24,000 nt of DNA, from NCBI GenBank assembly GCA_964217345.1, contig CAXPJI010000008.1, positions 1 to 24,000 of the forward strand. The letters run 5' to 3'. The notes beneath the pieces are model-generated. The model was not told where the DNA came from. It searched no databases and saw only the letters and a program-made list of their open reading frames with translations. Origin of the DNA: Euzebya sp. Lineage in GTDB: Bacteria; Bacteroidota; Bacteroidia; Flavobacteriales; Flavobacteriaceae. Within the stretch, counting starts at the first letter, position 1, and each line of letters opens with the position of its first letter. This document shows, piece after piece, positions 4,690-22,461 of this stretch. The position numbers and the translations under genes are program-made.

Positions 4690-5172
4690 CTAGGCTACCT
4701 CTCGCTCGAAAGCGATATAATGAGTGAGGTTGTTTGCTTTATTGTAAAGCGGTACAATCTTAACCTTACATAGGTAGGCCTCACCATTTTTACGGTAATT
4801 GGTAATTGAGGCGGTAAAAGGCTTATTAGTAGAAAGACCTTTGTGAAACTGTGAACGCTCCTCATCTTTAGTACCAGGGCCGTGAAGCATCGTTGGCTGT
4901 TTACCTACAATCTCATAGGCATTGTAGCCGGTCATTTCAGTAAATCCGCCATCTACCCATATCACTTTGTTATTACTATCGCTGATAATAATGGCTTGAT
5001 AATCATTGTAATCTTCGGCAGCAATCTCAATAGGTGTAACCCATGAATAGTTATTGGCAAATCGGGAATATACCTCTTCTAAGTGCTTACCGTTAAGCTC
5101 TTGACAAAGCCTGTGGTAATGTTCTAAAAAGAAGTCTCCAGCAATAAGAGGAAGTGAGCCAGTTGTTGGCAT
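4690..5172 (-). CDS. Stand-alone PAS-domain protein with no output domain
   Basis: The ATG at 5170-5172 is preferred over the TTG at 5178. The PAS core runs from IIISDSNNKVIWVDGGFTEMTGYNAYEIVGKQPTMLHGPGT to ITNYRKNGEAYLCKVKIVPL and THYIAFEREV. Only about 55 aa of N-terminal sequence lies outside the domain. Confidence 0.75.
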   Translation of the reverse strand: MPTTGSLPLIAGDFFLEHYHRLCQELNGKHLEEVYSRFANNYSWVTPIEIAAEDYNDYQAIIISDSNNKVIWVDGGFTEMTGYNAYEIVGKQPTMLHGPGTKDEERSQFHKGLSTNKPFTASITNYRKNGEAYLCKVKIVPLYNKANNLTHYIAFEREVA

Positions 5173-5261
5173 AAACAAAAATTTATTACTGTAAAATTAA
5201 TATATTTTTTGATTGAATCAACTAAATCGCTGATTTTTAGGAAGAAAGAGTCTGTTTCAGA

Positions 5262-6995: not shown

Positions 6996-8501
6996 CTACC
7001 AGATACCCTTCAGCCGCTCCTTCTCTAAACGGATCGCTTCATTCGTTGGATTATCGACGGCTATCTGATTGTAACCCTGGTCAGGGAACACCTGCAAGGT
7101 CATTAAAGTTTTTCCTCCTGCTACGAGAAGCTCGATGGAAGAAGCGTCTACATAGATTTCGAAGCTCAAAGATTCATCATTGAGGTAGCTAATGTCTGCA
7201 GTTAGCTCTTCAGAGGTAAACGCTTCACTAAACGAAACGTTTCCTGATTTAGAGCGATCAGCTACAATTTCACCATCGGCTCTATTAATGCTGAACACTA
7301 CTCGCTCGGTGTCATTCTGTAAAGCAAAACTAAATGCCTCAGCTGCTGTTTCTAAATAAATCCTAGATTGACTAGCACCCTCAAAAGGAATAAGTGATTG
7401 ACCTGAAGAGAGAGTCTCAACAGACGAGCCTTCTACTTTTAGACTGGCAGCTGCTTCTAAGATTTGACTTTGAAGACGGACACCGTCGGTTGCCTGAAAT
7501 AAAGACAGTTTTCTAGGCAAGGTCATCGAGCTTCTCCAAGCTTCTGTCGGAGTCTGCTGGGCATAGGCCCAGTTACTCATCCATCCGATAAACACCCTAG
7601 AATCATCGGGCACATCGTTGTAGGTGACTCCAGCATAGTTATCGGGCCCGTGATCTACCCAACGAATATCTTCCTGATCGGTTGAAAAAGTATAACCATC
7701 AAAATCGCCAATAAAATATTGAGTGGCACTACCTCCATTCGGGCCTCCCGGATTAATACTAATTAGTAGCACCCAATGCTTTTCGCCATTAAGCTCTAGC
7801 TCGAAAAGATCTGGGCATTCCCATACCCCTCCGTGGGCACCAACCCCTTGACCGAAGGTCGAACTGAGTTCCCAATCAATTAGGTTCGATGAACGAAAGA
7901 GTTGAAGGTGATCGCCGGCCACTAGGCTCATAATCCATGATGACGATGCTTCGTGCCAAAAAACCTTCGGGTCTCTAAAGTCTTTTACTCCTGGATTGGC
8001 AATGACTGGATTGTTTTGGTACATCGTCCAAGTATCGCCGTGGTAAAGACTGTAGGCGATTCCTTGAGTCTGATAGTCGATTTTACCTGCCTTCTCAGTC
8101 TCCATTTTGTGATAGGTAAAAATGGCAATGAGCGGCGGGTTTTCGGTCGTACCTAAACCTGAAGTATTCTCCTTATCGTAGACCGCGCTCCCTGAGAAAA
8201 TATATCCGTGCTCATCAGGAAACAATGCAATAGGTTTGTTTTCCCAATGAATCAAATCCTTACTTACCGCATGCCCCCAGTGCATAGGCCCCCAAACGAT
8301 ATCCTCAGGATAATACTGATAGAATAAATGGTAGGTTCCGTTTTCAAAGATTAATCCGTTCGGATCGTTCATCCATTTCTGTGGAGGAGAAAAATGATAT
8401 TGTAATCGGTAAGGCTCGTTATAATTCATAGTGGTCGTTGTGCTACATGCACCTAATAGCAGTGCAAAACTCGCGATAAAAACTTTTCTAATGCTCATCA
8501 T
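6996..8501 (-). CDS. Glycoside hydrolase family 32 (exo-fructosidase/levanase/invertase type), lipoprotein
   Basis: The catalytic GH32 motifs WMNDPNGL, FRDPKVFW and WECPDLF are present, plus a C-terminal beta-sandwich-sized region. Starting at the ATG at 8499-8501 gives MMSIRKVFIASFALLLGACS (signal plus lipobox). The track start at 8534 (also ATG) adds 11 aa. Confidence 0.88.
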   Translation of the reverse strand: MMSIRKVFIASFALLLGACSTTTTMNYNEPYRLQYHFSPPQKWMNDPNGLIFENGTYHLFYQYYPEDIVWGPMHWGHAVSKDLIHWENKPIALFPDEHGYIFSGSAVYDKENTSGLGTTENPPLIAIFTYHKMETEKAGKIDYQTQGIAYSLYHGDTWTMYQNNPVIANPGVKDFRDPKVFWHEASSSWIMSLVAGDHLQLFRSSNLIDWELSSTFGQGVGAHGGVWECPDLFELELNGEKHWVLLISINPGGPNGGSATQYFIGDFDGYTFSTDQEDIRWVDHGPDNYAGVTYNDVPDDSRVFIGWMSNWAYAQQTPTEAWRSSMTLPRKLSLFQATDGVRLQSQILEAAASLKVEGSSVETLSSGQSLIPFEGASQSRIYLETAAEAFSFALQNDTERVVFSINRADGEIVADRSKSGNVSFSEAFTSEELTADISYLNDESLSFEIYVDASSIELLVAGGKTLMTLQVFPDQGYNQIAVDNPTNEAIRLEKERLKGIW

Positions 8502-8561
8502 TGGGCTATTTTGGTTGAAAATATACAAATTCATTCACCCCGCCTCTCCAATCCTACAAAA

Positions 8562-9188
8562 ATGACCGATACACAGGCACTTACCATCTTTTGTAAAACA
8601 CCTAAGAAAGGGTTTGTAAAAACCCGTCTTGCTGCCAGTGTGGGGGATCAGAAGGCTTTAGAGGTCTACCTTAACCTTTTAAACATTACAGATGAAGAGA
8701 CCAGACCCTTCTCATCTTCAAGACATTTATTCTTAGCGAGTGCCTTAGAAGATTCTGTAGAAAAAATGCGATCTACTCTTCAACAGCAAGGCCTATTTAC
8801 CGATCCTAAAACTAACTTTGCAATTCAGCAAGGAGAAGATCTTGGTCAGCGAATGATTGCAGCATTCAAAAAGCTCTTCCAAAACCATCAATCGGTGGTC
8901 CTTATTGGCTGTGATCTTCCAGATTTAACCTCTGCACTAATCTCTAATGCTTTCGATGCACTCCAGAGTAATGATGTAGTAATAGGCCCTAGTTGTGATG
9001 GTGGCTATTATCTCATTGGCTTGAACAAGGAGACCCCCGACCTATTTAAAGAGATTTCTTGGAGCACGGAAAAGGTTTTAAATCAAACAATGGAAAAGGC
9101 TGAAAGACTTTCGCTAAAAGTTCAACTCTTAGATCAATTGAGAGACATTGACACCCTAGAAGACCTGCATTTCAGCAAACTTAAATAG
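8562..9188 (+). CDS. DUF2064 / TIGR04282-like (CofC/MobA-like GT-A fold) transferase, the family associated with arsenosugar/radical-SAM clusters
   Basis: ATG at 8562 (the track start 8511 adds 17 unlikely aa). Recognised motifs are LTIFCKTPKKGFVKTRLA, QQGEDLGQRM, LIGCDLPDL, VIGPSCDGGYYLIGL and ISWSTEKV, matching my memory of the DUF2064 consensus (AK.P.PG.VKTRL, QG.GDLG.RM, G.D.P, GPA.DGGYYL.G, W.T..V). Confidence 0.65.
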   Translation: MTDTQALTIFCKTPKKGFVKTRLAASVGDQKALEVYLNLLNITDEETRPFSSSRHLFLASALEDSVEKMRSTLQQQGLFTDPKTNFAIQQGEDLGQRMIAAFKKLFQNHQSVVLIGCDLPDLTSALISNAFDALQSNDVVIGPSCDGGYYLIGLNKETPDLFKEISWSTEKVLNQTMEKAERLSLKVQLLDQLRDIDTLEDLHFSKLK

Positions 9189-9236
9189 GTTAGTAAAGGT
9201 TTAGTATCCGCCCAAAATAGTCGTAATTTAGAGGCT

Positions 9237-10046
9237 ATGTTAACAGAAGATGTTTTAAAAGAATCTCTAGCATTCTTGCGTTCCAAAGGATTCGGAGATG
9301 CGGAGGTCGGTATCATTTTAGGCACAGGCCTTGGTCAGTTTGTCGATGAAATAACCATTGAGGCGGTAGCCCATTATCACCATATTCCTTACTTCCCCAT
9401 ATCCACAGTTGAATACCACTCAGGAAAACTCCTTTATGGTACACTTCAGGGTAAAAAGGTGGTCGTAATGCAAGGCAGGTTTCACCTCTATGAAGGCTAT
9501 GACTTTGTAGAACTGACGTACCCGATACGTGTGATGCACGCTCTAGGAATTAATAAACTTTTGGTTTCGAATGCTGCAGGAGCCATTAACCCTGACTACA
9601 GAAAAGGGGATTTATTACTTATAGACGACCATATCAACCTACAAGGAGGATCACCACTTGCCTTCTCGAACGTGAGTGAATTCGGGCCCCGATTTGTAGA
9701 TATGATTTGTCCGTATGATGCAGAACTTTCAAAAATAGTAGAAGAAAAGGCAAGCAGTGTTGGAATAAAACTTCACCGTGGGGTTTATGCAGCCGTTATA
9801 GGGCCTCAACTCGAAACTCGTGCCGAGTATCGAATGCTGAGAATCCTAGGTGCCGATGCGGTAGGTATGAGCACGGTACCCGAGGTTATTGTGGCCAACC
9901 AACTCAACCTTCCTGTAATTGCGATTTCAGTGATTACCGATGAATGTGACCCTGATCATCTGCAGCCCATAAACGTGCCAGAAATCATGGAAATCGCAAA
10001 GGCCAGCGAACCAAAACTTATCCAACTTTTTAAATCAGTTATTTAA
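9237..10046 (+). CDS. Trimeric-type purine nucleoside phosphorylase (PunA/PNP-MTAP family) with Asp at the Asn243-equivalent position
   Basis: 269 aa with motifs ILGTGLG, EYHSG, QGRFHLYEG, VSNAAGA, GPQLETRAEYR and LGADAVGMSTVPEVIVA. SVITDECD aligns with human SLITNKV and MTAP ATDYDCW. The stop overlaps the next start (TAATG 10044-10048). Confidence 0.85.
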   Translation: MLTEDVLKESLAFLRSKGFGDAEVGIILGTGLGQFVDEITIEAVAHYHHIPYFPISTVEYHSGKLLYGTLQGKKVVVMQGRFHLYEGYDFVELTYPIRVMHALGINKLLVSNAAGAINPDYRKGDLLLIDDHINLQGGSPLAFSNVSEFGPRFVDMICPYDAELSKIVEEKASSVGIKLHRGVYAAVIGPQLETRAEYRMLRILGADAVGMSTVPEVIVANQLNLPVIAISVITDECDPDHLQPINVPEIMEIAKASEPKLIQLFKSVI

Positions 10047-11011
10047 TGAGTTATCTAGACGCCACTCATGATTTATACACCAAAGCTGCTGAAACCCCTG
10101 AGATAGGCTTGTGCTGCACCACTAGCCCGATATGGCAGTTTCCTGGCTTGTCGATTCCTAAAAGGATGCAAGAAATGAACTACGGATGCGGAACAACAGT
10201 TTCTGCTTCTGATTTGGTAGGCAATCCTAAAATACTCTACGTCGGAGTAGGCGGAGCTATGGAGCTGCTTCAGTTCGCGTATTTCTCTAGAGAAAAGGGG
10301 AATATTATCGGGGTAGACTCCGTCGACAGAATGCTTCAAGCGGCAGAAGAGAATCTTTTAGTGGCTGAGAAAGAAAATGAATGGTTCGAACGTGATTTTA
10401 TCGAACTCAAAAAAGGCGATGCGCTAAACTTGCCTATTGAAGATGAATCTGTCGATATTGCTGCACAAAATTGCCTCTTTAATATTTTCAAAGCAGAAGA
10501 TCTCAAAAAGGCCATTTCAGAAATGTATCGAGTATTAAAGCCTCACGGTAGACTCGTTATGAGTGATCCTATTTGTGAACAACCGATGTCTGAAACACTT
10601 CGAAACGATGACCGCTTACGAGCAGAGTGTTTGAGCGGAGCTATTCCACTAAAAGACTACCTCAAGGCACTTACTGAAGCTGGCTTTGGTACTATCGAGG
10701 TGAGGGCAAAGCACTCGTATCGCATTCTTGATCCTAAACATTATTCGACCGACCAGCTGATACATATTGAATCGGTTGAAGTGTGTGCGATTAAAGATCC
10801 GATGCCCCCAGACGGGCCGTGCATTTTTACGGGTAAAACCGCCATTTATTTCGGAGAAGAGGAGTACTTTGATGATCATAAAGGCCACCTTCTTTTAAAG
10901 CACCAACCACTCGCAGTCTGCGATAAAACGGCCGCTCAACTGGGTGGTTTAAATGCCGACATCCACATCAGCGAGTCAACCTATCATTACAGAGGAGGAG
11001 GCTGCTGTTAA
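10046..11011 (+). CDS. arsM: ArsM-like As(III) S-adenosylmethionine methyltransferase (three-domain type, Cys-rich, C-terminal CC)
   Basis: 321 aa, collinear by eye with my memory of Cyanidioschyzon ArsM. Matches are YGCG (C48), IIGVDSVD, VDIAAQNCLFN (C143), LKPHGRLVMSD, RAECLSGA (C195), N-terminal GLCCTT (C23/C24), a C-terminal domain, and the tail GGGCC. Cys spacings (24/25, 95, 52) are close to CmArsM C44-C72-C174-C224 (28, 102, 50). Confidence 0.65.
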   Translation: MSYLDATHDLYTKAAETPEIGLCCTTSPIWQFPGLSIPKRMQEMNYGCGTTVSASDLVGNPKILYVGVGGAMELLQFAYFSREKGNIIGVDSVDRMLQAAEENLLVAEKENEWFERDFIELKKGDALNLPIEDESVDIAAQNCLFNIFKAEDLKKAISEMYRVLKPHGRLVMSDPICEQPMSETLRNDDRLRAECLSGAIPLKDYLKALTEAGFGTIEVRAKHSYRILDPKHYSTDQLIHIESVEVCAIKDPMPPDGPCIFTGKTAIYFGEEEYFDDHKGHLLLKHQPLAVCDKTAAQLGGLNADIHISESTYHYRGGGCC

Positions 11012-12312
11012 TGGATGAGAAAATCGTCATTATCGGCAATGGTATTGCAGGAAGTACTCTAGCACTTGAGTTAGCTGAGAAAGGAACTGCTTCAGTGACC
11101 CTGATCTCTGATGAAAGCCCTTATTTCTTCTCTAGAACTGCCCTGATGTATGTCTATATGGGGCATTTAACCAAAGAACAACTCGAACCCGTTTCTAGAG
11201 AAAGTTGGGCCCAATCTCCCATTCAGCGAGTCAAGGCCCGGGTTTTATCGATTCGTCCAGAAGACAAAGAGCTATCCTTTCAATCCAGTGAAGGGGACGT
11301 AAAGCAACTCTCCTATGATCGACTAGTGATTGCGACAGGATCAAAACCTGCCTTTTACGATTGGAAAGGGCAAGAAGCTGAAGGAGTCTTAGGGCTTTAC
11401 CATTTAAGCGATTTAGAAAAACTAGAAAAATGGGCTCCGAATGCTTCTGCTTGTCCCGAAGCTGTTGTGATTGGGGGCGGATTAATTGGAATCGAGCTCT
11501 GCGAAATGCTACTCAGTCGCCAAATAAAAACAACCTTAATTATTAGAGAAAGCTTTTTCTGGTCAAGCCACTTGCCAGAATCTGATGCGCAGTTTGTAGA
11601 AAAGCACATCCAATCGCATCACTTAAATCTCATAAAAGAAGATGAGTTACTAGAAATAAGTACAGATGAGACCGGTCGCGTCTCTTCGATTCAAACCAAA
11701 AAAGGCGAGACGATTTCGTGTAATTTAGTCGGAATTACTACCGGTGTGCGTCCGAACATTGAGTTTTTAAAAACGAGCAGATTAGAATTAGACAAAGGGA
11801 TACTCGTCGATGAATATCTCAAAACCTCAGATCCCTCGATTTATGCCATTGGCGACTGTGCTCAGGTTAGAAATCCACTTTCGAATCGTTCCGCAATCGA
11901 ACCCGTATGGTATTCGGGTAAATTGATGGGGGAAGCCCTTGCTCAGACTTTTTCCGGCCAACCGGCCCCATATAACCCCGGTATATGGTACAACTCAGCA
12001 AAGTTTTTCGATCTCGAATACCAGACCTATGGCAAAGTCCACCCAAAAGCATCGCAGCCGGAGAATGAACAACAATTTCATTGGGAGGCCGATGAGAAAG
12101 CGATGACCTTCGCCTATGATAAAACGTCCGGTGCATTTTTAGGAATCAACAGCTTTGGCATTCGTCTGAATCATCGTATAGTCAGCAGCTGGATTGAAAC
12201 GGCTATTACTATTCAAGAAGTAATTGATCGTTTAGAAGAAGCCCATTTTGATCCAGAATTTAGTCATCGATACTACAACCAGATTAAACATGCATTCGTA
12301 CAGAACCAATAA
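11011..12312 (+). CDS. FAD/NAD(P)-dependent pyridine-nucleotide oxidoreductase (ferredoxin/rubredoxin-reductase-like, no redox CxxC)
   Basis: 433 aa with the FAD fold KIVIIGNGIAGSTLALELAEKG, a second dinucleotide fold AVVIGGGLIGIELCEML, and IYAIGDCAQV. The start is fused to the upstream stop (TAATG 11009-11013). Confidence 0.8.
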   Translation: MDEKIVIIGNGIAGSTLALELAEKGTASVTLISDESPYFFSRTALMYVYMGHLTKEQLEPVSRESWAQSPIQRVKARVLSIRPEDKELSFQSSEGDVKQLSYDRLVIATGSKPAFYDWKGQEAEGVLGLYHLSDLEKLEKWAPNASACPEAVVIGGGLIGIELCEMLLSRQIKTTLIIRESFFWSSHLPESDAQFVEKHIQSHHLNLIKEDELLEISTDETGRVSSIQTKKGETISCNLVGITTGVRPNIEFLKTSRLELDKGILVDEYLKTSDPSIYAIGDCAQVRNPLSNRSAIEPVWYSGKLMGEALAQTFSGQPAPYNPGIWYNSAKFFDLEYQTYGKVHPKASQPENEQQFHWEADEKAMTFAYDKTSGAFLGINSFGIRLNHRIVSSWIETAITIQEVIDRLEEAHFDPEFSHRYYNQIKHAFVQNQ

Positions 12313-13729
12313 CATACAAAAGGTATTTACCTATTTGGGGCTATCTGGCCTAGCGGTTTTAATCCTTGCGGGATTTACCGCCTCTTTCCTCAAATCAGCA
12401 GGTCTTTTTCTCGGTCTAGGACTTATCAGCCTTGGAGTTATCGGCTATACCTTTTCTAGCTATTCAGGCTTACCCCAGGGTATTAAAAACAACGGTGTTT
12501 GGTACCGATCCCTAACTTCAAGAGGTATTGTCGCTTGGGTAGTCGGAGTGATTTTAACCGCGTTTTATATAATACTCTACTTTTATCCTGAACACTTAGA
12601 GGGACTTATTCGGTTATTCGACCCTTTAAGCGAGGGGTTGAGTGGAAAAAAGGCTTCGCAGTGGTTCGTATACGGGGTGCTTTATACCCTCGCTATCGTA
12701 CTCTTTGGAATTAAGTTTATTGTAAAATACAAGCACTCCAAATACCAAAAGTACCGAACCTACAGCGTCATCTTTTTTCAAACGATTTTCGCGTTTCTGA
12801 TACCCGAGATGATGGCTCGACTGAATGGGGACCTGCCCTATTACGATTTGAAAAGCATTTGGCCTTTGAATTATTACCTTTTCGACGGCTACCAATTAGA
12901 TGGATTTCTACAAAACGGCAGCCTAGGAACTGCACTTTTGATCTTTGGTATTCTTAGTACGCTAATTATTACACCTATTCTGACCTATAAATTTGGTAAA
13001 CGATGGTACTGCTCCTGGGTTTGTGGATGCGGTGGTCTTGCTGAGACTGCAGGAGATCCCTTTAGACAATTGAGCGATAAAAGTCTTCGAGCATGGAAAC
13101 TCGAAAGATGGATGATTCATCTTATACTGGTCTGGGTATTCATTAGTACCGTTGGGGTGGTTTACAGTTATCTTCTGCAAGCTCCTGATTCTTATTTGTT
13201 AGGACCTAAAACATTCCTTCTTTCAGTAAGTTTTGTTTTTAGCCTCGTGGTGGGATTAATTTTATGGAAGCGCAGGGATTGGCTAGCGAAAGATGCCCAA
13301 TCTTCAGCTATTGCAATCAGCTCAGTAATTGTTCTGCTTTTAGGGTTTTTCTTTTTCAGTGAGAGTGATCGAGTACTGTTTATACCCTCATATCAGATTC
13401 GATCTGCCTACGGATTCTTCATCGGCAGTATCTTTTCTGGGGTAATTGGAACGGGGTTTTATCCGATACTAGGAAACAGAGTTTGGTGTCGATTCGGATG
13501 TCCAATGGCCGCAATTTTGGGAATTCAGCAAAAGCTATTCTCCAAATTTAGGATCAGTACCAATGGTGGACAGTGTATCTCTTGCGGAAATTGCTCCGCT
13601 TACTGCGAAATGGGAATAGACGTGCGTGCCTACGCCCAACGTGAAGAACCTATAAAAAGAGCCTCTTGTGTAGGATGCGGAATCTGCTCAGCTGTTTGTC
13701 CGAGAGGGGTGCTTCGACTAGAATCATGA
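12290..13729 (+). CDS. Polytopic membrane polyferredoxin (NapH/MauN-like, two CX3C motifs plus two 4Fe-4S motifs)
   Basis: The ATG at 12290 overlaps the upstream gene by 23 nt; the track start 12248 is less likely. There are many hydrophobic helices. Motifs are WYCSWVCGCGG and VWCRFGCPMA, with C-terminal CISCGNCSAYC and CVGCGICSAVCP. Confidence 0.75.
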   Translation: MHSYRTNNIQKVFTYLGLSGLAVLILAGFTASFLKSAGLFLGLGLISLGVIGYTFSSYSGLPQGIKNNGVWYRSLTSRGIVAWVVGVILTAFYIILYFYPEHLEGLIRLFDPLSEGLSGKKASQWFVYGVLYTLAIVLFGIKFIVKYKHSKYQKYRTYSVIFFQTIFAFLIPEMMARLNGDLPYYDLKSIWPLNYYLFDGYQLDGFLQNGSLGTALLIFGILSTLIITPILTYKFGKRWYCSWVCGCGGLAETAGDPFRQLSDKSLRAWKLERWMIHLILVWVFISTVGVVYSYLLQAPDSYLLGPKTFLLSVSFVFSLVVGLILWKRRDWLAKDAQSSAIAISSVIVLLLGFFFFSESDRVLFIPSYQIRSAYGFFIGSIFSGVIGTGFYPILGNRVWCRFGCPMAAILGIQQKLFSKFRISTNGGQCISCGNCSAYCEMGIDVRAYAQREEPIKRASCVGCGICSAVCPRGVLRLES

Positions 13730-14412
13730 TTTATGTAATTATCCCTGCACTAAACGAAGAGGAGGCAATTGCTAGGGTTATTGCAGATATACCTGAATCA
13801 GTCACCGAAGTAGTAGTGATTGATAATGGTTCAACAGATCGAACTTCAGAGGTTGCAAGAAAGGCCGGAGCTACCGTTCTTAAAGAATCTCGAGCGGGCT
13901 ATGGTTATGCCTGTCTCAAAGGAATCACCTATTTGAAAGACCAACAACAAAATGGGGATATCATTGTCTTCTTAGATGGTGATTATTCGGATTACCCCGA
14001 AGAACTAACCTCTCTAGTGGCTCCTATCGAGAAGGACAATTATGATTTAGTGATCGGTACTCGAAATAATCCTTTACTACAAAAAGGAGCCCTCACTCCA
14101 CAACAACGATTCGGCAATGCGCTTGCCACTCGATTAATGGCCCTATTGTATGGCGGAAAGTATACCGATCTCGGTCCCTTTAGAGCCATAAGCTTCGATG
14201 CCTTAGATCGACTAAAAATGCAGGATAAAACTTACGGATGGACGGTTGAAATGCAACTCAAAGCGCTAAAACATCGATTAAGGTATACCGAAGTACCCGT
14301 TAACTATCGTCCACGTATCGGTGAATCCAAGGTGTCTGGCACCCTTAAAGGAACGATCATGGCCGGTTACAAAATACTCGGTTGGATATTTATTTACGCA
14401 TTCAAGAAATGA
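13726..14412 (+). CDS. Small family-2 glycosyltransferase (polyprenyl-phosphate glycosyltransferase / TIGR04283-like)
   Basis: The ATG at 13726 forms an ATGA overlap with the upstream stop. It is 228 aa with IYVIIPALNEEEAI, VVIDNGSTDRT and FLDGDYSD (DxD). This is the GT-A fold of the DPM1/Ppm1/GtrB type, without long C-terminal TM helices. Confidence 0.75.
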   Translation: MIYVIIPALNEEEAIARVIADIPESVTEVVVIDNGSTDRTSEVARKAGATVLKESRAGYGYACLKGITYLKDQQQNGDIIVFLDGDYSDYPEELTSLVAPIEKDNYDLVIGTRNNPLLQKGALTPQQRFGNALATRLMALLYGGKYTDLGPFRAISFDALDRLKMQDKTYGWTVEMQLKALKHRLRYTEVPVNYRPRIGESKVSGTLKGTIMAGYKILGWIFIYAFKK

Positions 14413-15833
14413 GCGGAATAGTTCTCACTTGGCAAATCGCCCTAGGCTTATGCGTTTTGATGCTCAGTATCTATTCCTTTTACCAAGGGTACTTAGCTAT
14501 CCTATCCTATAGAACCCAATCAAAAGAGGAGGATACAAAATTAGGAGTATTCCCAACGGTAGTTCTTCAATTACCCCTTTTTAATGAAGGCAATACGATT
14601 GATGCAACTTTTAAGTCGATCCTTGAATTAACTTATCCTAAAGAACAGTTACAAATTCAAGTTCTTGACGATTCAACTGATGAAGGATCACGTGCATTAG
14701 CCCAACTATGGGTAGAACGATTGCATACTTATGGCTTCAAGGCAGAATACTTGTGGCGAGCTAATCGAATTGAATTTAAAGCTGGTGCGCTTCGAGAAGG
14801 TTTGGAAAAAACAGACTCCGAATTCGTAGCCATTTTAGATGCTGATTTTAGGGGCACACCGGGTTGGTTAGAAAAGGGACTTACGCCATTTAATGACCCT
14901 AAGGTAGGTATCGTCCAATTCAGATGGGGCTACTTCAACTTAGATGAAAGTTGGTTTACTCAAATGCAGGCATTACCCTTAGAGGTTCACTTTAGAAACG
15001 AACATCATGCACGTTATAACCATCGGTATTTAAGTAATTTTAATGGGACGGCTGGGATTCTTAGAAGATCAGCTATAGAAAATTCTGGTGGATGGAGTGG
15101 TGACACTTTAACCGAGGACATTGATTTGTCGTATCGTATTCAGTTAAAAAAATACCGATTGGTATATTATAACGAAAATTCTTTAGATTCTGAGCTACCT
15201 CATACCGCGAACGCCTATAGAACACAACAAAGAAGATGGAATAAAGGTGGCGCTGAAACACTCAAGAAGTTGTTTGTATCTATTCTTAAATCAGATTTAA
15301 GTTTTTCGCAAAGACTCTTCGCATTATTTCACTTATCAGGATCTAGTTTTTATCTCGCATCTTTAGGTCTTTTCCTTTTAAGTTTGTTTGGCTTACCTCT
15401 TAAGATCTCAGGCCTTTTAAACGAAAACGCCCTCTTTTGGACCTTCATTCAGGTAGCCCTAAGCGTCAACACGCTGATTCTCTTTACCTGTTTTTACCAG
15501 GCATATTCCAAATCTACATTCGGCTTTAATAGCCTAAGATTTACCCGCTTATTCATCACCTATATTTTATACACCACCGGGCTGGGTTGGCATCATGGTA
15601 AAGCAGTGCTTGAAGGTCTTATCGGGATGAAATCACCTTTTGAAAGAACTCCAAAAAAAGGAAGCACAACTTCAAAAAAGCAACGGCCACCCTATATCGA
15701 ATTACTCATTTCCCTTCTGTTCTTTGCAGCAGTCCTAGTTGATCTAAGAATTGGATTTTGGCCTATTTTAGGAATCCATCTCGTCGGTGGAATAGGCTAT
15801 CTTTTAAGTTTTTCGCACGCATGCAAAGCCTAA
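14409..15833 (+). CDS. Membrane family-2 glycosyltransferase of the CslA / glucosyl-diacylglycerol-synthase / cellulose-synthase-like type
   Basis: The ATG at 14409 forms an ATGA overlap with the upstream stop. It has an N-terminal TM helix and the D,D,D,QxxRW signature (VLQLPLFNE, QVLDDSTDE, AILDADF, LTEDIDLSYR, QQRRWNKG). Several C-terminal TM helices follow. Confidence 0.75.
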   Translation: MSGIVLTWQIALGLCVLMLSIYSFYQGYLAILSYRTQSKEEDTKLGVFPTVVLQLPLFNEGNTIDATFKSILELTYPKEQLQIQVLDDSTDEGSRALAQLWVERLHTYGFKAEYLWRANRIEFKAGALREGLEKTDSEFVAILDADFRGTPGWLEKGLTPFNDPKVGIVQFRWGYFNLDESWFTQMQALPLEVHFRNEHHARYNHRYLSNFNGTAGILRRSAIENSGGWSGDTLTEDIDLSYRIQLKKYRLVYYNENSLDSELPHTANAYRTQQRRWNKGGAETLKKLFVSILKSDLSFSQRLFALFHLSGSSFYLASLGLFLLSLFGLPLKISGLLNENALFWTFIQVALSVNTLILFTCFYQAYSKSTFGFNSLRFTRLFITYILYTTGLGWHHGKAVLEGLIGMKSPFERTPKKGSTTSKKQRPPYIELLISLLFFAAVLVDLRIGFWPILGIHLVGGIGYLLSFSHACKA

Positions 15834-17101
15834 GACGAAATAGCATCTATGTTATTCTCCCACTAACCCTTTTAGGGTATTATCTCCTAGCCCAGGTAGA
15901 ACGATCAGAAATCTCAATGCTGATTGGCCTATTTAGCCTTCTTTTTACCAGCTATATCGGTTTACTGAAATTGAAAGCTACGCACCTAGGGTGGATCCTT
16001 ATTGGACTCTGTTTTCGATTGGCCTTTATCGGCTCCACACCACTTCTGTCACAGGACTATTTTCGATTCATTTGGGACGGAAGCCTATTATCCAATGGGA
16101 TCAACCCTTACCTCTATCTTCCCGATGAACTCATCGAAATGTTTAGTCAGTGGGAATATTTGCACTCTGGAATGGGCCCAATGAGTGCCGGACACTACAC
16201 GAACTATCCGATGATTAATCAGCTGCTATTTACACTCGGAGTTCTTTCAACAAAGCCGATACTGACCTACCGACTTTTAATCATACTAGCTGATCTCATC
16301 ACCTTTAAGTTATTGACTAAACTAAGCTCGCAGACCTGGGGTTTAACCTATTGGCTGTCGCCAATGGTTATTCTAGAAGGTGTAGGCAACCTACATTTCG
16401 AACCGGTGATGGTTGCCTTCCTAGTTTTAGGCCTTTATCTTTTTAAGCAAGGTGTACACCTTAGGTCTTCTATTGCATTAGCAGCATCCGTACTTTTAAA
16501 ACTGATACCACTTATGTTCGCGCCTTTGCTTTTGAAAGTAGTAAAGCAAAAGCAACTGAAAATTATGGTGTTTGGATTCATTGTAACCCTAGCCTTATTC
16601 AGCACTCCTTTTCTTGACCCATGGTTTTTTGCCACCTATAGTGAGAGTGTGGGTTTATGGTTTTCGAATTTTGAATTCAACGCGGGTATCTACCGAATCA
16701 TCAAAGAAGTTGGTACATTATTTGGAGTTCAAGATTGGCAAATGATTCGATTTTACGGGAAGGCGCATTCACTTGCCATTATCATTCTTGCTTTAAAATT
16801 TACCTGGGGATGTGATCGTTTTTCAAAGGTGCTTGACAAAAGCTACTTGCTTCTACTGATCTATCTTCTGACTGCGCCAACGATTCATCCATGGTATCTC
16901 ATAACCCTACTAGCGCTCGGGGCAATTAGTAAACACCCATCCGCTATTCTATGGTCGTTTACCATTATTATAAGCTATGTAGCTTATCAAATGAACCCTA
17001 TCGAATTACCATTATGGCTGGTGGCTCTTCAGTTCATTCCCGTGCTAATATCACTGACTAGCTTCTCTTTCCGATCATTTTTAGAAAAGAAACTTCTTTA
17101 G
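15821..17101 (+). CDS. Polytopic membrane protein, GT-C-like (DUF2029/PIG-M-like) putative lipid-linked-sugar glycosyltransferase
   Basis: The ATG at 15821 overlaps the upstream gene by 13 nt. It is 426 aa, almost entirely hydrophobic helices. The first-loop acidic/aromatic motif SQDYFRFIWDGSLLSNGINPY resembles the D-containing loop motif of GT-C mannosyltransferase-like proteins. This is the weakest assignment in the operon. Confidence 0.45.
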   Translation: MQSLRRNSIYVILPLTLLGYYLLAQVERSEISMLIGLFSLLFTSYIGLLKLKATHLGWILIGLCFRLAFIGSTPLLSQDYFRFIWDGSLLSNGINPYLYLPDELIEMFSQWEYLHSGMGPMSAGHYTNYPMINQLLFTLGVLSTKPILTYRLLIILADLITFKLLTKLSSQTWGLTYWLSPMVILEGVGNLHFEPVMVAFLVLGLYLFKQGVHLRSSIALAASVLLKLIPLMFAPLLLKVVKQKQLKIMVFGFIVTLALFSTPFLDPWFFATYSESVGLWFSNFEFNAGIYRIIKEVGTLFGVQDWQMIRFYGKAHSLAIIILALKFTWGCDRFSKVLDKSYLLLLIYLLTAPTIHPWYLITLLALGAISKHPSAILWSFTIIISYVAYQMNPIELPLWLVALQFIPVLISLTSFSFRSFLEKKLL

Positions 17102-17975
17102 TGTCAAGAGCTCTCCACTGCCCTCGAGGAAGGTCTTTTTTAGTGAGTCCCGCGAACATTACTCGATCGAGCTTTGCAACCTCATAACCCAAGTGTTCAA
17201 AAATTCTTCGAACGATACGGTTTCGTCCTGAGTGAATTTCAAGACCCACTTCACGCTTCGTTGCACCAGCGATATAGGAAACAGCATCAACACTTATCGG
17301 GCCATCTTCTAATTCAATTCCTTTCTCGATTTGTTGTAAATCGCTCACCTTTAGTGCACGATCTAATACCACATGGTAGATCTTTCTAACGGCATAGCGC
17401 GGATGAGTAAGCTTTGCAGCCAACTCCCCGTCGTTAGTAAAAAGCAACAGACCCGTCGTATTACGATCTAATCGACCTACAGGCAAAAGTCGACTCTTGC
17501 TAGCATTACTAATTAGATCCATGACGGTTTTACGACCTTTATCGTCTTCGGTAGTAGTAAGAAAATTCTTGGGTTTATTCAGGAGTATGTACTCCATCTT
17601 TTCTGAAGTCAATAGTCGGCCATCGAATTTAACTGAGTCACCAGGCATTACCTTGTACCCCATTTCGCTAACCACCTTACCATTTACCTCAACGCTACCA
17701 GCGGTAATGAAGGTATCCGCCTCACGTCTCGAACAGATTCCTGCGTGAGCAATGAAACGGTTCAGTCGCATGCTTCCATCATCAACCTTCTTCGGCTCAC
17801 TATTTGTCGGTTTTACAGGGCGCTTATTGAAAGGTCGTTGACCTCCCCTTTGCTGACCTCCTCTTTGTTGGCCTTCTCGTTTTGGTCCTTCAGTGGGTCG
17901 TTGTTTCCCTGATCTTTGACCTCCTGTGTTTTTCTTTGGTTTACGGTTGTTCAATGTGACTCGTTTAGAGCGCAA
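17058..17975 (-). CDS. rluB: 23S rRNA pseudouridine synthase, RsuA/RluB family, with Arg/Gly/Gln-rich N-terminal extension
   Basis: It has an S4 domain (MRLNRFIAHAGICSRREADTFITAGSVEVNGK) and the catalytic motif VGRLDRNTTGLLLFTNDGE. The only start giving the full ORF is the TTG at 17973-17975; the next Met is residue 69 at the S4 domain. Confidence 0.85.
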   Translation of the reverse strand: MRSKRVTLNNRKPKKNTGGQRSGKQRPTEGPKREGQQRGGQQRGGQRPFNKRPVKPTNSEPKKVDDGSMRLNRFIAHAGICSRREADTFITAGSVEVNGKVVSEMGYKVMPGDSVKFDGRLLTSEKMEYILLNKPKNFLTTTEDDKGRKTVMDLISNASKSRLLPVGRLDRNTTGLLLFTNDGELAAKLTHPRYAVRKIYHVVLDRALKVSDLQQIEKGIELEDGPISVDAVSYIAGATKREVGLEIHSGRNRIVRRIFEHLGYEVAKLDRVMFAGLTKKDLPRGQWRALDTKEVSFLKMIGKRS

Positions 17976-18870
17976 AAATAAACGCTTTTAATTGATGTAA
18001 TCGATTCAAATCGAACAATAAAATGCTCAGGGTGCCTAATAACACCCAAAATTTCAATAACAAGCGCATTTTTAGATAGCTTATACCCATAAAACTGAAA
18101 ATCAATTCGATAGCTACAAAAACTAGAACTGCCACTGAGGTGCTAAAGTAAAGTTGCATCTGGCCGAGGTCAGACCGTAGGCTTAAACCAAGGCCTAAGA
18201 AGGCAAGAGCAAAAAGCATCCCGGCTGTAATTTTTCTGGTTTTTGACTCGCCTAATTGAATGGGTAGCGAATGTAAACCGCTAGAGAGATCTCCCTTCAG
18301 ATTGTTCAAATCTTTTAATTGAACGAGTACCCAAAGAAGAAGAAATAAAAAGCTAGCGAAGAGTAAAATGCGAGGTTCAAAATGCCTGTAATAAAGGAAT
18401 AGAGCAATAATAGGGCTAACAGCAAGGAAAGCGCTGAGTACAGATCCCCAGATAAAGAGGGAACGAATTCTATGAGAATATAGCCAAATGGTCGTAATGT
18501 ATCCGACGAAAAAAAGCGCTGCAAGAAGAGAGACCTTAAGCGCCATTAAAAAGGCAATAAGATTAAGAAGCAAATACCCTCGCATGAGGGAGGATAATGA
18601 CCACTGACCGTCAATGACTGTTTTCACCGGGCGATTAATAAGGTCTTTGGGATGATCGTAATATTGATTGATTAGATATCCGGCCGTAACCACAAAGAAG
18701 CTTGAACCAACGAGTAAATGAAGCTCTAGGTTTCGCAAGAGATCCGCTACTGGATAAGTCGATCCGAGAATAAAAATGGCGGATAAATATTGGGCTAAGA
18801 CAACCAAAAGTGCATTTTGGAGTCGAGTAACACTAAAAAACGTAAGTAGATTTCTTTTAACGCTAGGCAT
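17965..18870 (-). CDS. UbiA-family membrane prenyltransferase (DGGGP-synthase-like)
   Basis: 301 aa and highly hydrophobic. The first motif is NQYYDHPKDLINRP (N-x3-D-x3-D-x2-N-x-P). The second is LKDLNNLKGDLSSGLHSLPIQLG. It sits next to mevalonate pathway genes. Confidence 0.75.
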   Translation of the reverse strand: MPSVKRNLLTFFSVTRLQNALLVVLAQYLSAIFILGSTYPVADLLRNLELHLLVGSSFFVVTAGYLINQYYDHPKDLINRPVKTVIDGQWSLSSLMRGYLLLNLIAFLMALKVSLLAALFFVGYITTIWLYSHRIRSLFIWGSVLSAFLAVSPIIALFLYYRHFEPRILLFASFLFLLLWVLVQLKDLNNLKGDLSSGLHSLPIQLGESKTRKITAGMLFALAFLGLGLSLRSDLGQMQLYFSTSVAVLVFVAIELIFSFMGISYLKMRLLLKFWVLLGTLSILLFDLNRLHQLKAFIFAL

Positions 18871-18872
18871 AC

Positions 18873-19832
18873 CTAAAAGGTATAAACTACCTCTAATTGG
18901 TGACCATCTAACGCCTTTTTAGTAGCCTCTAAATCTTGAGTGAATCCCAAAAAATAGCCTCCACCGCCAGAGCCACAGAGTTTAAGGTAATAAGTATCGG
19001 TTTCTAACCCCTTCTGCCAAATATCGTGGAAGTTTGAAGGAATCATTGGTTTAAAGTGATCGAAGACCACTCCTGATAACTTTCGAAGATCGCTAAAAAG
19101 AGAGCGTATATTACCGCTTAGGAAATGATCAATACACGCATCAGTATATTGAACAAATTGCTCTCTCATGACCTCTTCGAACTGCTTGTTCTTTAGGTTC
19201 TCCATAAAGAGTTGAACCATAGGTGCCGTCTCTCCGGTTATACCGCTGTCTAATAGAAACACTGCTCCCTTACCCGCCTGGTTTTGCGAAGGTATTGGAG
19301 TAGATTCTACATGATCTTTGGCGTGTATTAAAATAGGTAGACTTAGATAACTATTGAGCGGATCAAGTCCCGATGAAGTCCCATGAAAATGAGATTCCAT
19401 AATCGCAAATTGTCCTTTGAGCGTAAGCAGTTTGTCTCGGGTTAATGAACCTAAGACCGAAACCTTCTCCCCAGCATATCGGTCATAAATCGCAGCAACA
19501 ATCGCTCCGCTACTCCCGACGCCATATCCCATAGGAATCGAACTATCGAAATACATGCCTTTCTCTAAATCGGCATCTAGACGCTCAAAATCAAACGAGA
19601 CATCAAGGCACTGCTCAGCCACCTGGCTCTTCAGGTAGGCAGCATAATTCTTTAGATGTGTATTTGATGAAGAAGGTATTTCAGAGGAGGTATTCTCGGG
19701 AAAACGCAAGGCTCCTTTGAACGCATTAAACGGTATAGCAAGGCCTTTAGAATCTTTAATGATCCCGTACTCTCCGAAAAGAAGAATCTTAGCGTAAAAT
19801 AATGGGCCTTTCATTTTGTTTAATTTTTTCAT
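18873..19832 (-). CDS. GHMP-family kinase, mevalonate-kinase-like (phosphomevalonate kinase not excluded)
   Basis: The ATG at 19830-19832 is preferred; the track start 19847 is a TTG. Motifs are AKILLFGEYGII, the GHMP motif PMGYGVGSSGAIVAAI, and LKLCGSGGGGYFLGF. It is adjacent to the decarboxylase. Confidence 0.7.
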   Translation of the reverse strand: MKKLNKMKGPLFYAKILLFGEYGIIKDSKGLAIPFNAFKGALRFPENTSSEIPSSSNTHLKNYAAYLKSQVAEQCLDVSFDFERLDADLEKGMYFDSSIPMGYGVGSSGAIVAAIYDRYAGEKVSVLGSLTRDKLLTLKGQFAIMESHFHGTSSGLDPLNSYLSLPILIHAKDHVESTPIPSQNQAGKGAVFLLDSGITGETAPMVQLFMENLKNKQFEEVMREQFVQYTDACIDHFLSGNIRSLFSDLRKLSGVVFDHFKPMIPSNFHDIWQKGLETDTYYLKLCGSGGGGYFLGFTQDLEATKKALDGHQLEVVYTF

Positions 19833-19847
19833 CTCAAAGGTAAACAA

Positions 19848-20906
19848 TTATTTCGCTCCAAATCCACATTCATCCAACAAGTATTGTCCGTCTTCACAAA
19901 ACGCAGCAAGCTCATTATCAATCAAATCAATAACACGCTTCTTGTTTTCAGCGGGGTATAGTACATGTACATTTGCGCCCGCATCCAAGGTAAAACAAAC
20001 CGGTATATTGGTCTCTGCTCTAAACGTTCTGATACGTTGTATAATTGACAAAGTACCCGGTTGCATTAAAACATAACTAGGTGTAGAACTAAGCATCATC
20101 GCGTGAAGACTAAGCGCCTCCAGTTCTACAATCTCGATAAACTGATCGAGCTCACCGCCTCGCAAAACAGGTAAAAGCTTCGCTAGATTTTCATTTGCTT
20201 GAGCAAATCGCTGCTTAGCAAAAGGGTGATTGTTCATTAGATTATGACCCACCGTACTACTTACAGACTTTACTCCTTTATGCACCAGTAAGATGGCGTC
20301 TTGGTAGGTGTTAAAAATCGGATGAGCCTCTAAAAAAGGTGTTGCAAAAAGATTTGAGCTTTCAGTGATATCTTTATGAAAACCCCAACTCATAAGAGGT
20401 CCTTCAATACTTCGAGCCGCACTTCCCGAACCCAGACGAGCTAAAAAAGAAGCCTTCTTTAAATCCACTTCGCTACCAGAAAGCTTGGCCTCGAGACTGC
20501 AAATAGCCATTGCTAAAGCTGCCATTCCACTAGCTGAAGAAGCTATTCCGCTACTGTGCGGGAAACTATTTGAGGTTTCGATATTCAAGCTATAGCCTTT
20601 CAAATAAGGGCAATAAATCTCTATTCTATCGACAAAAGATTGAATTTTTGGAATAAAACTTGGCTTGGCCTCACCCTCAAATTTTAAGTTAATTTCAGGG
20701 GACTTAGAAGGTTCAAAAGATACCGTAGTGTCGGTAAAAGCCTTACTAAGGGTGAACGAAATCGATGGATTGGCAGGAATCTGAGGATCGTACTTTCCCC
20801 AATACTTTACTAAAGCAATATTGCTCGGCGCACGATGTATGGTGCGATAAGAAAACCCGTTCTCCTTGAGGTCTGATTTAAATTCTTCGAGCAATTGATC
20901 ATTCAT
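19848..20906 (-). CDS. mvaD: Diphosphomevalonate decarboxylase
   Basis: Motifs are APSNIALVKYWGK, GIASSASGMAALA and RLGSGSAARS. The ATG at 20904-20906 gives 352 aa and leaves a 68-nt divergent region to glpK. The track start 20984 would overlap the glpK start. Confidence 0.88.
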   Translation of the reverse strand: MNDQLLEEFKSDLKENGFSYRTIHRAPSNIALVKYWGKYDPQIPANPSISFTLSKAFTDTTVSFEPSKSPEINLKFEGEAKPSFIPKIQSFVDRIEIYCPYLKGYSLNIETSNSFPHSSGIASSASGMAALAMAICSLEAKLSGSEVDLKKASFLARLGSGSAARSIEGPLMSWGFHKDITESSNLFATPFLEAHPIFNTYQDAILLVHKGVKSVSSTVGHNLMNNHPFAKQRFAQANENLAKLLPVLRGGELDQFIEIVELEALSLHAMMLSSTPSYVLMQPGTLSIIQRIRTFRAETNIPVCFTLDAGANVHVLYPAENKKRVIDLIDNELAAFCEDGQYLLDECGFGAK

Positions 20907-20974
20907 AACTTCCCCAGTAAAGGGCAAAGATAACAGAATGTTATTGTATCTTTTTGGAGCTAAATGGGTTATTA

Positions 20975-22459
20975 ATGAAATCATATATACTGGCCCTCGA
21001 TCAGGGAACCACCAGCTCTAGAGCGTTAATTATTAATCACCAAGGTGAAGTTGTTGCCATGGCTCAGAAAGAATTCAAGCAATTCTTTCCACAAAATGGC
21101 TGGGTAGAGCACGATGCCAATGAAATTTGGGAAAGTCAACTCGAAGTTACTCGAGAAGCCCTTTCCAAAATCGAAGGCGAAGCATCGGTAGTAAGCGCTA
21201 TCGGAATTACCAATCAACGAGAGACCGCAGTCGTTTGGGATAGAAAAACCGGAAAGCCTATCTACAAAGCCATTGTCTGGCAAGATAAACGCACCACAGA
21301 AGTCTGTGAACAATTAAAGACTGAAGGAAAAGCTGCTTTCATTCAGTCTAAAACCGGCCTGGTGATCGATTCGTATTTCTCAGGAACCAAAATTGCCTGG
21401 ATACTCGACCACGTACCCGGAGCCCGAAAAAGAGCTGAGCAAGGTGAGCTTATGGCGGGTACTATTGACAGTTGGCTTTGTTATAAGTTGAGTAATCACA
21501 AGCTTCATATTACTGATCCTTCTAATGCATCACGCACCTTACTCTACAATATTAATACACTCGAATGGGACCCAGAGTTACTCGAACTTTTCAAAGTCCC
21601 AGGCAACCTTTTACCAGAGGTTAAGTCTTCGAGCGAAGTCTATGGACATACTCACAAAGCACTTTTCGGGGAAGAGATTCCTATAGCGGGTATTGCTGGA
21701 GACCAACAAGCCGCATTATTCGGACAACAATGCACCGAAATAGGCATGGTAAAAAACACCTATGGTACCGGTTGTTTCATGTTAATGAATGTAGGTGAGA
21801 AACCCGTCTTCTCAAAGGCTAATCTTCTTAGTACGGTAGCCTGGCAAATCGGCGATCAGGTCACCTACGCACTTGAAGGAAGTGTTTTTATGGCTGGCGC
21901 CATAGTTCAATGGCTTCGAGATAGTTTAGGTTTCATTGAAGCCTCTTCAGAGGTAGAGGCACTTGCAGCAAGCGTGCCAGATAGTTCGGGAGTTTACTTT
22001 GTACCTGCTTTTGTCGGGCTTGGAGCACCTTATTGGGATGCATACGCTAGAGGTCAAATCACCGGGCTGACTCGGGGAAACACAAAGGCTCATATCTCTA
22101 GAGCCGCATTAGATGCGATTGCCTATCAAACATTAGATATTTTAGAGGCCATGCAAAAAGATGCAGACACCTCGATTCAAGTACTTAAAGTAGATGGCGG
22201 TGCTTCAAATAATAATCTGCTCATGCAGTTTCAGGCAGACATTTTACAAAGCCAAGTGCTTCGACCAAAACAAGTAGAAACCACGGCCATGGGCGCTGCC
22301 TTTCTTGCGGGCCTCGCGGTAAAATTCTGGACCTCTACTCAAGAGATAAATAGTATCTCAGAAGAGGATCGAAGATTTATTCCAGAACCACTAAATTCAA
22401 AAATTACTAACGGAATTAAGGGTTGGCACGAGGCTGTGTCAACTTGCCTAACTAAATAA
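20975..22459 (+). CDS. glpK: Glycerol kinase
   Basis: ATG at 20975, giving [17 protein letters not shown]. Further motifs are [25 protein letters not shown] and [18 protein letters not shown]. Length is 494 aa. Confidence 0.95.
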
Positions 22460-22461
22460 CT

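Follow-up and report, generated by a model that had tools for sequence, protein, structure and literature searches.

A purine nucleoside phosphorylase of an Asp-type subfamily recurs beside arsenosugar genes in Bacteroidota

In marine food webs, organic arsenic occurs chiefly as arsenosugars, and to our knowledge ArsM and ArsS account for the only steps of their biosynthesis with assigned enzymes. We analyzed a 24,000-nucleotide stretch of flavobacterial DNA (Euzebya sp., placed in Flavobacteriaceae by GTDB; GenBank assembly GCA_964217345.1, contig CAXPJI010000008.1, positions 1 to 24,000; hereafter the window) in which a gene for a purine nucleoside phosphorylase (PNP) lies between a TIGR04282-family gene and arsM. 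The point of lasting value is the conserved placement of PNP in arsenosugar clusters; the residue-level surprise, an Asp at the purine-selectivity position, is ordinary. We see a roughly even chance that the window PNP is a resident, probably broad-specificity enzyme co-opted for phosphorolysis of 5'-deoxy-5'-dimethylarsinoyl-adenosine (DDMAA), with the resulting sugar-1-phosphate handed to the TIGR04282 protein. The genes concerned are arranged as follows.

8511 to 9188, plus strand: TIGR04282/DUF2064 CofC-like protein with a nucleotide-diphospho-sugar transferase fold (TIGR04282, 195.1 bits, cut-off 134; PF09837)
9237 to 10046, plus strand: PNP gene of the trimeric (NP-I) type, ATG start, 269 amino acids (aa)
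10044 to 10048, plus strand: TAATG, in which the PNP stop and the ArsM start share one base
10046 to 11011, plus strand: arsenosugar-type ArsM (NF038099, 551.3 bits, cut-off 400)

The TIGR04282 protein also matches PDB 3CGX (E 2.4e-30), and its gene ends 48 nt 5' of the PNP start. Its listed TTG start at 8511 overlaps the start of a GH32 gene; because the family alignment begins at residue 24 of the open reading frame (ORF), the gene more probably begins at the ATG at 8562. An earlier reading of this DNA, made from the sequence alone (the sequence-only reading), had described a stop-start fusion of PNP to an ArsM-like gene, and both the overlap and the ArsM assignment were borne out.

The ORF at 9237 to 10046 matches PF01048 (E 1.7e-53) and scores above the cut-offs of the curated models for trimeric (NP-I, PunA-type) PNPs: 338.3 bits for NF006054 (cut-off 218), 289.7 bits for TIGR01697 (cut-off 197.1) and, at a borderline level barely over the threshold, 296.4 bits for TIGR01700 (cut-off 293.35). 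The MTAP model TIGR01694 gives 99.6 bits, below its threshold of 274.85, which places the protein outside that family. Its best PDB homologues are 4LNA (E 1.2e-87) and 4M1E (E 2.4e-77), and its AlphaFold model (pLDDT 92.9) has the NP-I alpha/beta fold and superposes at TM 0.94 to 0.96 on 4LNA, 4M1E, 8SWT and human PNP. On sequence grounds this is the resident trimeric-type PNP of the flavobacterium, for which we predict a homotrimer with phosphorolytic activity. It is a further member of a subfamily that is already known and for which structures have been solved.

A genome scan seeded with this subfamily, called Asp-type here for the residue discussed below, yielded 80 loci and, together with earlier loci, 85 PNPs. 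At 25 of the 27 Flavobacteriales genome loci, and at 9/9 loci of the window's clade, TIGR04282 lies directly upstream of PNP; of the 27, 21 have ArsS beside the orthologous PNP and 20 have ArsM. The canonical flavobacterial order begins TIGR04169-ArsS (TIGR04167, 440 bits)-rhodanese (NF045521)-TIGR04282-PNP-ArsM and continues with FA_hydroxylase-DUF547-TIGR04283, then GH113 and a Pyr_redox, Fe-S and glycosyltransferase (GT) block. Flagellimonas, Nonlabens, Maribacter and Croceivirga have rhodanese-TIGR04282-PNP-TIGR04283, and Robiginitalea has TIGR04282-PNP-ArsM-TIGR04283. PNP is tied to the cluster in other orders at five non-Flavobacteriales loci (L039, L040, L041, L048 and L053). The arrangements include ArsS-PNP-TIGR04282-TIGR04283 (L039, L087, L089 and L102), TIGR04282-PNP-TIGR04283-AhpD-like-ArsS-ArsM (L095), PNP-AhpD-like-ArsS (L041) and ArsS-PNP (L111 and L160); L048, L053 and L093 are linked as well, and L156 and L163 show a divergent window-like form with ArsS upstream. 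An apparent TIGR04282-PNP fusion at L053 was rejected, the long ORF being an artefact of taking the first in-frame start codon. The linkage takes at least five different gene orders, seen in Flavobacteriaceae and in loci of Chitinophagaceae-like and Cytophagales-like type, and in Bacteroidota other than Flavobacteriales at least five orders join PNP to ArsS.

A second, independent scan of metagenomes was anchored on ArsS and gave 80 loci. PNP is present in 33 of these, and in 14 of the 28 with at least 5 kb on both sides of ArsS. Where a TIGR04282 gene has room for a neighbor it adjoins PNP in 26 of 36 cases, with TIGR04282-then-PNP gaps of -17 to +119 nt, and TIGR04282-PNP is the best-conserved pair of the entire cluster. 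Both scans cover largely Bacteroidota-like ArsS (55 to 80% identity). The recurrence of the linkage in differing orders argues for selection rather than inertia.

ArsM makes dimethylarsenite, and ArsS adenosylates it to DDMAA (PMC13598754), the first committed step after ArsM (bioRxiv 10.1101/2022.09.23.509062). In the pathway that we propose, PNP would then phosphorolyse DDMAA to adenine and 5-deoxy-5-dimethylarsinoyl-ribose-1-phosphate, the CofC-like TIGR04282 protein would convert the latter to a nucleoside diphosphate (NDP)-sugar, and the GT2-type TIGR04283 protein would transfer the sugar to an acceptor. With a nucleotidyltransferase as partner, a phosphorylase makes better sense than a hydrolase, since its product is already the sugar-1-phosphate. 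The order ArsS-PNP-TIGR04282-TIGR04283 is collinear with these reactions, and the position of PNP between ArsS/TIGR04282 and ArsM/TIGR04283 in many Bacteroidota gives a testable sequence of phosphorylase, nucleotidyltransferase and glycosyltransferase. Ordinary salvage probably remains among the functions of the enzyme.

The specificity expected of the enzyme depends on a few residues, listed here with their human counterparts.

9324 to 9326, plus strand: Thr30, opposite human PNP Ser33 and MTAP Thr18 (phosphate site)
9810 to 9815, plus strand: Leu192-Glu193, opposite human PNP Phe200-Glu201; MTAP has Ser178 at the Glu column
9939 to 9941, plus strand: Asp235 (codon GAT), opposite human PNP Asn243 and human MTAP Asp220
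9975 to 9977, plus strand: Val247 (codon GTG), opposite human PNP His257 (5'-OH contact) and MTAP Val233 (5'-methylthio pocket)

The placement of Asp235 agrees among three kinds of alignment: BLASTP against human PNP (43% identity), MAFFT with 119 representatives, and HMMER alignment to PDB homologues. The human references were 289/289 identical to PDB 1PF7/1ULA (PNP) and 283/283 identical to 1CB0 (MTAP), and as a control the MAFFT alignment correctly reproduced the known MTAP residues Thr18, Phe177, Ser178, Met196, Thr197, Asp220, Asp222, Val233 and Val236. SVITDEC pairs with SLITNKV, so that Asp235 stands opposite Asn243, as the sequence-only reading had judged by eye, and shares its column with MTAP Asp220, the resemblance it had pointed out. 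INVPEI pairs with ANHEEV after the 2-residue gap that it had anticipated, which puts Val247 opposite His257 and confirms that this His is not conserved. Its description of the PNP motif set as complete was slightly overstated. The human contacts His64, Arg84, His86, Tyr88, Met219 and Ser220 are kept as His61, Arg81, His83, Tyr85, Met211 and Ser212, and with Glu193 (human Glu201, the 6-oxopurine N1-H contact) seven residues are retained, but Ser33 is replaced by Thr30 and Phe200 by Leu192, the latter a subfamily-specific residue. Of the MTAP adenine-reading triad Ser178/Asp220/Asp222 only Asp220 has its equivalent, Glu193 and Cys237 standing for the other two. In the MTAP 5'-alkylthio pocket, as judged from the alignment only, Val247 and Ile250 match Val233 and Val236, and Phe153 replaces His137'.

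The Asn at position 243, on which the 'inosine/guanosine-specific' character of TIGR01700 is based, is not present in the window PNP, and the automatic name of the subfamily, 'purine nucleoside phosphorylase I, inosine and guanosine-specific', is probably wrong in limiting it to 6-oxopurines. The sequence-only reading had proposed an adenine-nucleoside phosphorylase, and the case for adenine specificity is weaker than it stated: the equivalent of Glu201 is kept, yeast PNP N256D, in which Asn-to-Asp opens a trimeric PNP to 6-aminopurines, accepts 6-oxopurines as well (PMC5074518), and Bacteroides fragilis PNP (8SWT), with a natural Asp243, was crystallised with the hypoxanthine analogue Immucillin-H, so that Asp alone does not exclude 6-oxopurine ligands. 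From the co-occurrence of Asp235 and Glu193 and the 8SWT ligand, we expect the enzyme to accept purines broadly, both 6-amino and 6-oxo, rather than to be adenine-specific. The loss of the His that binds the 5'-OH to a hydrophobic residue, with Val247 and Ile250 in the MTAP Val233 and Val236 columns, suggests that 5'-deoxy and 5'-substituted riboses would be tolerated.

The signature formed by Thr30, Leu192, Asp235 and a hydrophobic residue at 247, which sets the active site apart from that of human and Bacillus PNPs, extends well beyond the window. Of the 120 database homologues nearest to the protein (67 to 98% identity, mostly Flavobacteriaceae), 118 share it and read SVLTD. Among PDB entries, 4LNA (Spirosoma), 4M1E (Planctopirus) and 8SWT have Asp at the 243 position, and Asn is found in 8SWU (Clostridium perfringens) and 3LA8 (Streptococcus mutans). 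An exhaustive search reduced to 50%-identity clusters gave a representative set whose top 150 include 119 single-domain proteins, which split into 89 with Asn and 28 with Asp at this position; Leu at 200 occurs in 21 of the 28, for the most part together with Thr at 33 and a hydrophobic residue at 257. The signature is carried by all 85 related genome-locus PNPs, and the 80 loci of the scan belong to Flavobacteriaceae, Chitinophagales, Sphingobacteriales, Cytophagales, Chlorobi, Ignavibacteria, Gemmatimonadota, Planctomycetota, Omnitrophota, Balneolales and Fibrobacteres; as one search pattern contained the Leu, this sample shows taxonomic breadth and says nothing on the frequency of the subfamily. 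It is likewise present in 32 of 32 full-length PNPs from the metagenome loci. The Asp235 column is invariant in alignment A1 and in all 85 + 32 related PNPs, and the 257-equivalent is Ile, Leu or Val at 83 of the 85 genome loci, with one Phe and one Met. The Asp is therefore a lineage trait of a large subfamily, ordinary for its lineage, and we rejected the idea that it is an adaptation specific to this gene. The sequence-only reading had singled it out, but the same Asp is found irrespective of genomic context (85/85 loci, about 48 of them non-arsenic), in essence the very outcome that this reading had named as counting against it. PNP-domain fusions among the representatives (P0123, P0124, P0127, P0128, P0141, P0145 and P0191; 441 to 1001 aa) comprise DeoB-PNP, PNP-DeoC, UP/DeoD-like-PNP and two or three tandem PNP domains. 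We rejected such Rosetta-stone fusions as a pathway clue, since the partners (DeoB, DeoC, UP-like, MnmE or tandem PNP) are none of them arsenic-linked.

Outside Flavobacteriales, 48 of 53 loci have no arsenic-cluster gene near PNP. The common neighbors there are a YggS-like PLP protein (23 loci), IleS immediately 3' of PNP (19 loci), DivIVA (18 loci), and LspA and a DksA/TraR zinc-finger protein (12 loci each), and the order yggS-like/divIVA/PNP/ileS/dksA-traR-like/lspA is kept in Ignavibacteria, Gemmatimonadota, Omnitrophota, Chlorobi and Balneolales. This order is found at L045, L054, L057, L058, L061, L063 to L065, L069, L070, L072, L074 to L077 and L083 to L085, and yggS-divIVA-PNP-ileS-lspA is a housekeeping arrangement.

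Several observations weigh against co-option for DDMAA phosphorolysis. The identical active-site signature occurs in these plainly housekeeping contexts, an Asp-type relative (8SWT) binds a hypoxanthine analogue, and we found no published kinetics for any enzyme of the subfamily. PNP similarity tracks taxonomy, not cluster linkage, which indicates that the cluster draws on the resident PNP instead of a paralogue of its own; in Formosa sp. A9 (L019) the PNP is kept though the cluster is gone, with no cluster genes nearby, and shares 84% identity with the cluster-linked PNP of Gelidibacter. Compact ArsS-TIGR04282-(ArsM)-TIGR04283 clusters without PNP exist, so PNP is a frequent, not an obligatory, cluster member. 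No ArsS was found within 10 kb in the nine loci of the window's clade, nor in those of Flagellimonas, Nonlabens, Maribacter, Croceivirga and Robiginitalea, and ArsS (TIGR04167), the AhpD-like TIGR04169, rhodanese and TIGR04283 are absent from the 24-kb window, where the best TIGR04283 score is 44.7 (cut-off 182) and tblastn adds nothing. Finally, the Flavobacteriaceae synteny could be largely inherited rather than selected. The pathway role claimed in the sequence-only reading is supported, more strongly than could be seen from the window, by the several Bacteroidota gene orders that place PNP beside TIGR04282, ArsS, ArsM and TIGR04283; the window itself lacks ArsS and TIGR04283.

PNP might instead be purely a housekeeping salvage enzyme, its adjacency to TIGR04282 and ArsM being inherited order without coupling and its Asp reflecting broad specificity of the lineage's single PNP. 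The conserved synteny in other phyla, the taxonomic pattern of similarity, the Formosa locus and the PNP-free ArsS clusters all favor this explanation, as does the finding of no second NP-I gene in the window or in loci L001 to L165. Inherited order alone fits less well with a linkage that recurs in at least five arrangements across three groups of Bacteroidota, with PNP start and stop codons that overlap TIGR04282 and ArsM, and with TIGR04282-PNP being the best-conserved pair of the cluster. We regard a purely housekeeping PNP as possible but doubtful.

Two genes near ArsS that might have stood in for PNP were not convincing: an MTAP at L164 lies 4.4 kb away across unrelated genes, and a weak MTAN-like ORF at L158 lies 1.9 kb upstream of the TIGR04169-like gene preceding ArsS. 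ArsS itself is 86 to 89% identical between flavobacterial genera, compared with 60 to 70% for the neighboring PNP at comparable distances (L007:7731-8783; P0271-P0390). In a protein search for ArsS elsewhere in the window's clade, all of the matches listed have at least 86% identity and come from other genera, which says nothing on the clade itself.

PNP might instead clear nucleoside by-products of S-adenosylmethionine (SAM), either 5'-deoxyadenosine from abortive ArsS turnover or 5'-methylthioadenosine, as a functional MTAP analogue with no biosynthetic part. 5'-Deoxyadenosine inhibits radical SAM enzymes, the PNP gene adjoins such an enzyme in most relatives, and the protein is MTAP-like at three positions (Thr30/Thr18, Asp235/Asp220 and Val247/Val233). 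Its closest partner, however, is TIGR04282 rather than ArsS, the TIGR04282-PNP pair persists where ArsS is absent, and the MTAP model falls far short of its cut-off (99.6 against 274.85 bits), all of which makes a clearance role unlikely.

A rhodanese-domain protein (NF045521, 'rhoda_near_glyco') usually stands between ArsS and TIGR04282 (L020:8882-9394 and equivalents). Acr2-type arsenate reductases with a rhodanese fold are known, and the cluster rhodanese could supply arsenite. PNP could itself be imagined as the arsenate reductase, nucleoside arsenolysis giving ribose-1-arsenate that is reduced by thiols to arsenite for ArsM. Its position next to ArsM and, in relatives, next to the rhodanese-domain protein would fit, and mammalian PNP, the only one for which this is known, reduces arsenate in vitro according to work cited in PMC12608789; the same review gives an in vivo role as unknown. 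With a sugar-nucleotide-type transferase as the conserved partner, and with TIGR04282-PNP pairs that also occur without ArsM, we consider this highly improbable.

Returning to co-option for DDMAA, the window lineage holds the cluster cut to TIGR04282-PNP-ArsM, and the arsenical route there would therefore depend on ArsS encoded elsewhere. The close relatives L003 and L004 have a layout identical to that of the window, and ArsM is kept without a nearby ArsS in the window, L003, L004 and L167. In the window's clade a minus-strand GH32 gene fills the site occupied by TIGR04169, ArsS and rhodanese genes in other Flavobacteriaceae (window 6996-9188 compared with L007, L009 to L012, L016 and others). 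Downstream of ArsM lies a further block.

11011 to 17101, plus strand: five packed genes 3' of ArsM, encoding a Pyr_redox_2 flavoprotein, a NapH-like 4Fe-4S membrane protein, an AglJ/DPM1-like GT2, a GT2_3 protein and an MptA/B-like GT-C

From TIGR04282 to the GT-C the genes abut or overlap. This block probably belongs to the same operon as PNP-ArsM; a promoter and terminator scan of 8300 to 17400 gave no signal above chance. It accompanies arsenosugar genes throughout Flavobacteriaceae (L001, L003 to L005, L008, L016, L021, L023, L028 and others) and has the look of a route that leads by way of polyprenyl-phosphate sugars to a glycoconjugate at the surface. The canonical cluster also holds an OlsE-like fatty-acid hydroxylase, one or two DUF547 proteins, GH113 and sometimes an ApaH-like metallophosphoesterase, examples of these extra genes being L009:8988-9887, L024:10850-11734, L010:12139-12909 and L021:10849-11592, and their presence hints at a lipid-linked or phosphorylated arsenical product.

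Elsewhere in the window, glycerol genes flank the region (609 to 2162 and 20954 to 23948), encoding a glpD-like dehydrogenase, glycerol kinase, a GlpF-type aquaglyceroporin and a glycerophosphodiester phosphodiesterase. Arsenite is taken up by aquaglyceroporins, and glycerol is a common arsenosugar aglycone; the proximity may be coincidence. On the minus strand just 3' of the GT-C gene (17965 to 20984) lie a UbiA-family prenyltransferase, a mevalonate kinase-like gene and a diphosphomevalonate decarboxylase, and at 4690 to 5178 there is a small LOV/PAS protein resembling a YtvA-type blue-light photoreceptor (69 bits, under the family cut-off).

In several genera TIGR04282 and PNP have stayed paired where ArsS and ArsM are gone, and the pair may therefore also act on non-arsenical nucleosides. 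We put forward, tentatively and as something that we would not expect to prove right, a wider proposal: that the Thr/Leu/Asp/hydrophobic subfamily is really an adenosine or 5'-substituted-adenosine phosphorylase, and that TIGR04282-PNP-TIGR04283 is a module converting SAM-derived 5'-modified adenosines to NDP-5-deoxypentoses and then to glycosides. If so, the module would supply adenine removal, sugar activation and glycosylation when joined to ArsM and ArsS; at the Flagellimonas, Maribacter and Nonlabens loci, where it stands without ArsM/ArsS, its product would be an arsenic-free glycoconjugate of a 5-deoxy- or 5-thio-pentose, whose destination may be the adjacent polyprenyl-phosphate GT2/GT-C block.

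Among known systems, the closest in structure are the structural-genomics entries 4LNA (Spirosoma linguale PNP I) and 4M1E (Planctopirus limnophila PNP I), which have the subfamily and the Asp/Leu-Glu-Thr/hydrophobic-257 signature in common with the window PNP; we found no substrate data for them in the literature, where they turned up only in use as a modelling template. Human PNP shares the fold and the phosphate and ribose contacts, and the natural Asp of the window enzyme mimics the engineered N243D. Compared with human PNP and its mutants (1ULA, 3GB9), the window PNP keeps Glu201, unlike the adenine-specific E201Q-N243D, and has Val for His257 and Leu for Phe200. Human MTAP (1CB0) has equivalents of Thr18, Asp220, Val233 and Val236 in the window PNP, but with Glu for Ser178, Cys for Asp222 and Phe for His137 the latter is not a member of that family. 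Bacteroides fragilis PNP (8SWT) is, like the window PNP, of trimeric type, comes from Bacteroidota and naturally has Asp at 243; unlike it, the B. fragilis enzyme keeps His257 and Phe200.

A PNP is not named as a member of the arsenosugar system in the NCBIfam hits of the window or in any paper that we found, and our literature search returned nothing on TIGR04282, TIGR04283 or DUF2064, on trimeric PNPs with a natural Asp or on the later steps of arsenosugar synthesis. Of the NCBIfam cluster families TIGR04167, TIGR04169, TIGR04282, TIGR04283 and NF038099, the window has TIGR04282 and NF038099. With the ArsM/ArsS arsenosugar pathway of Synechocystis the window shares the NF038099 ArsM, and its relatives hold the full set around the same PNP.

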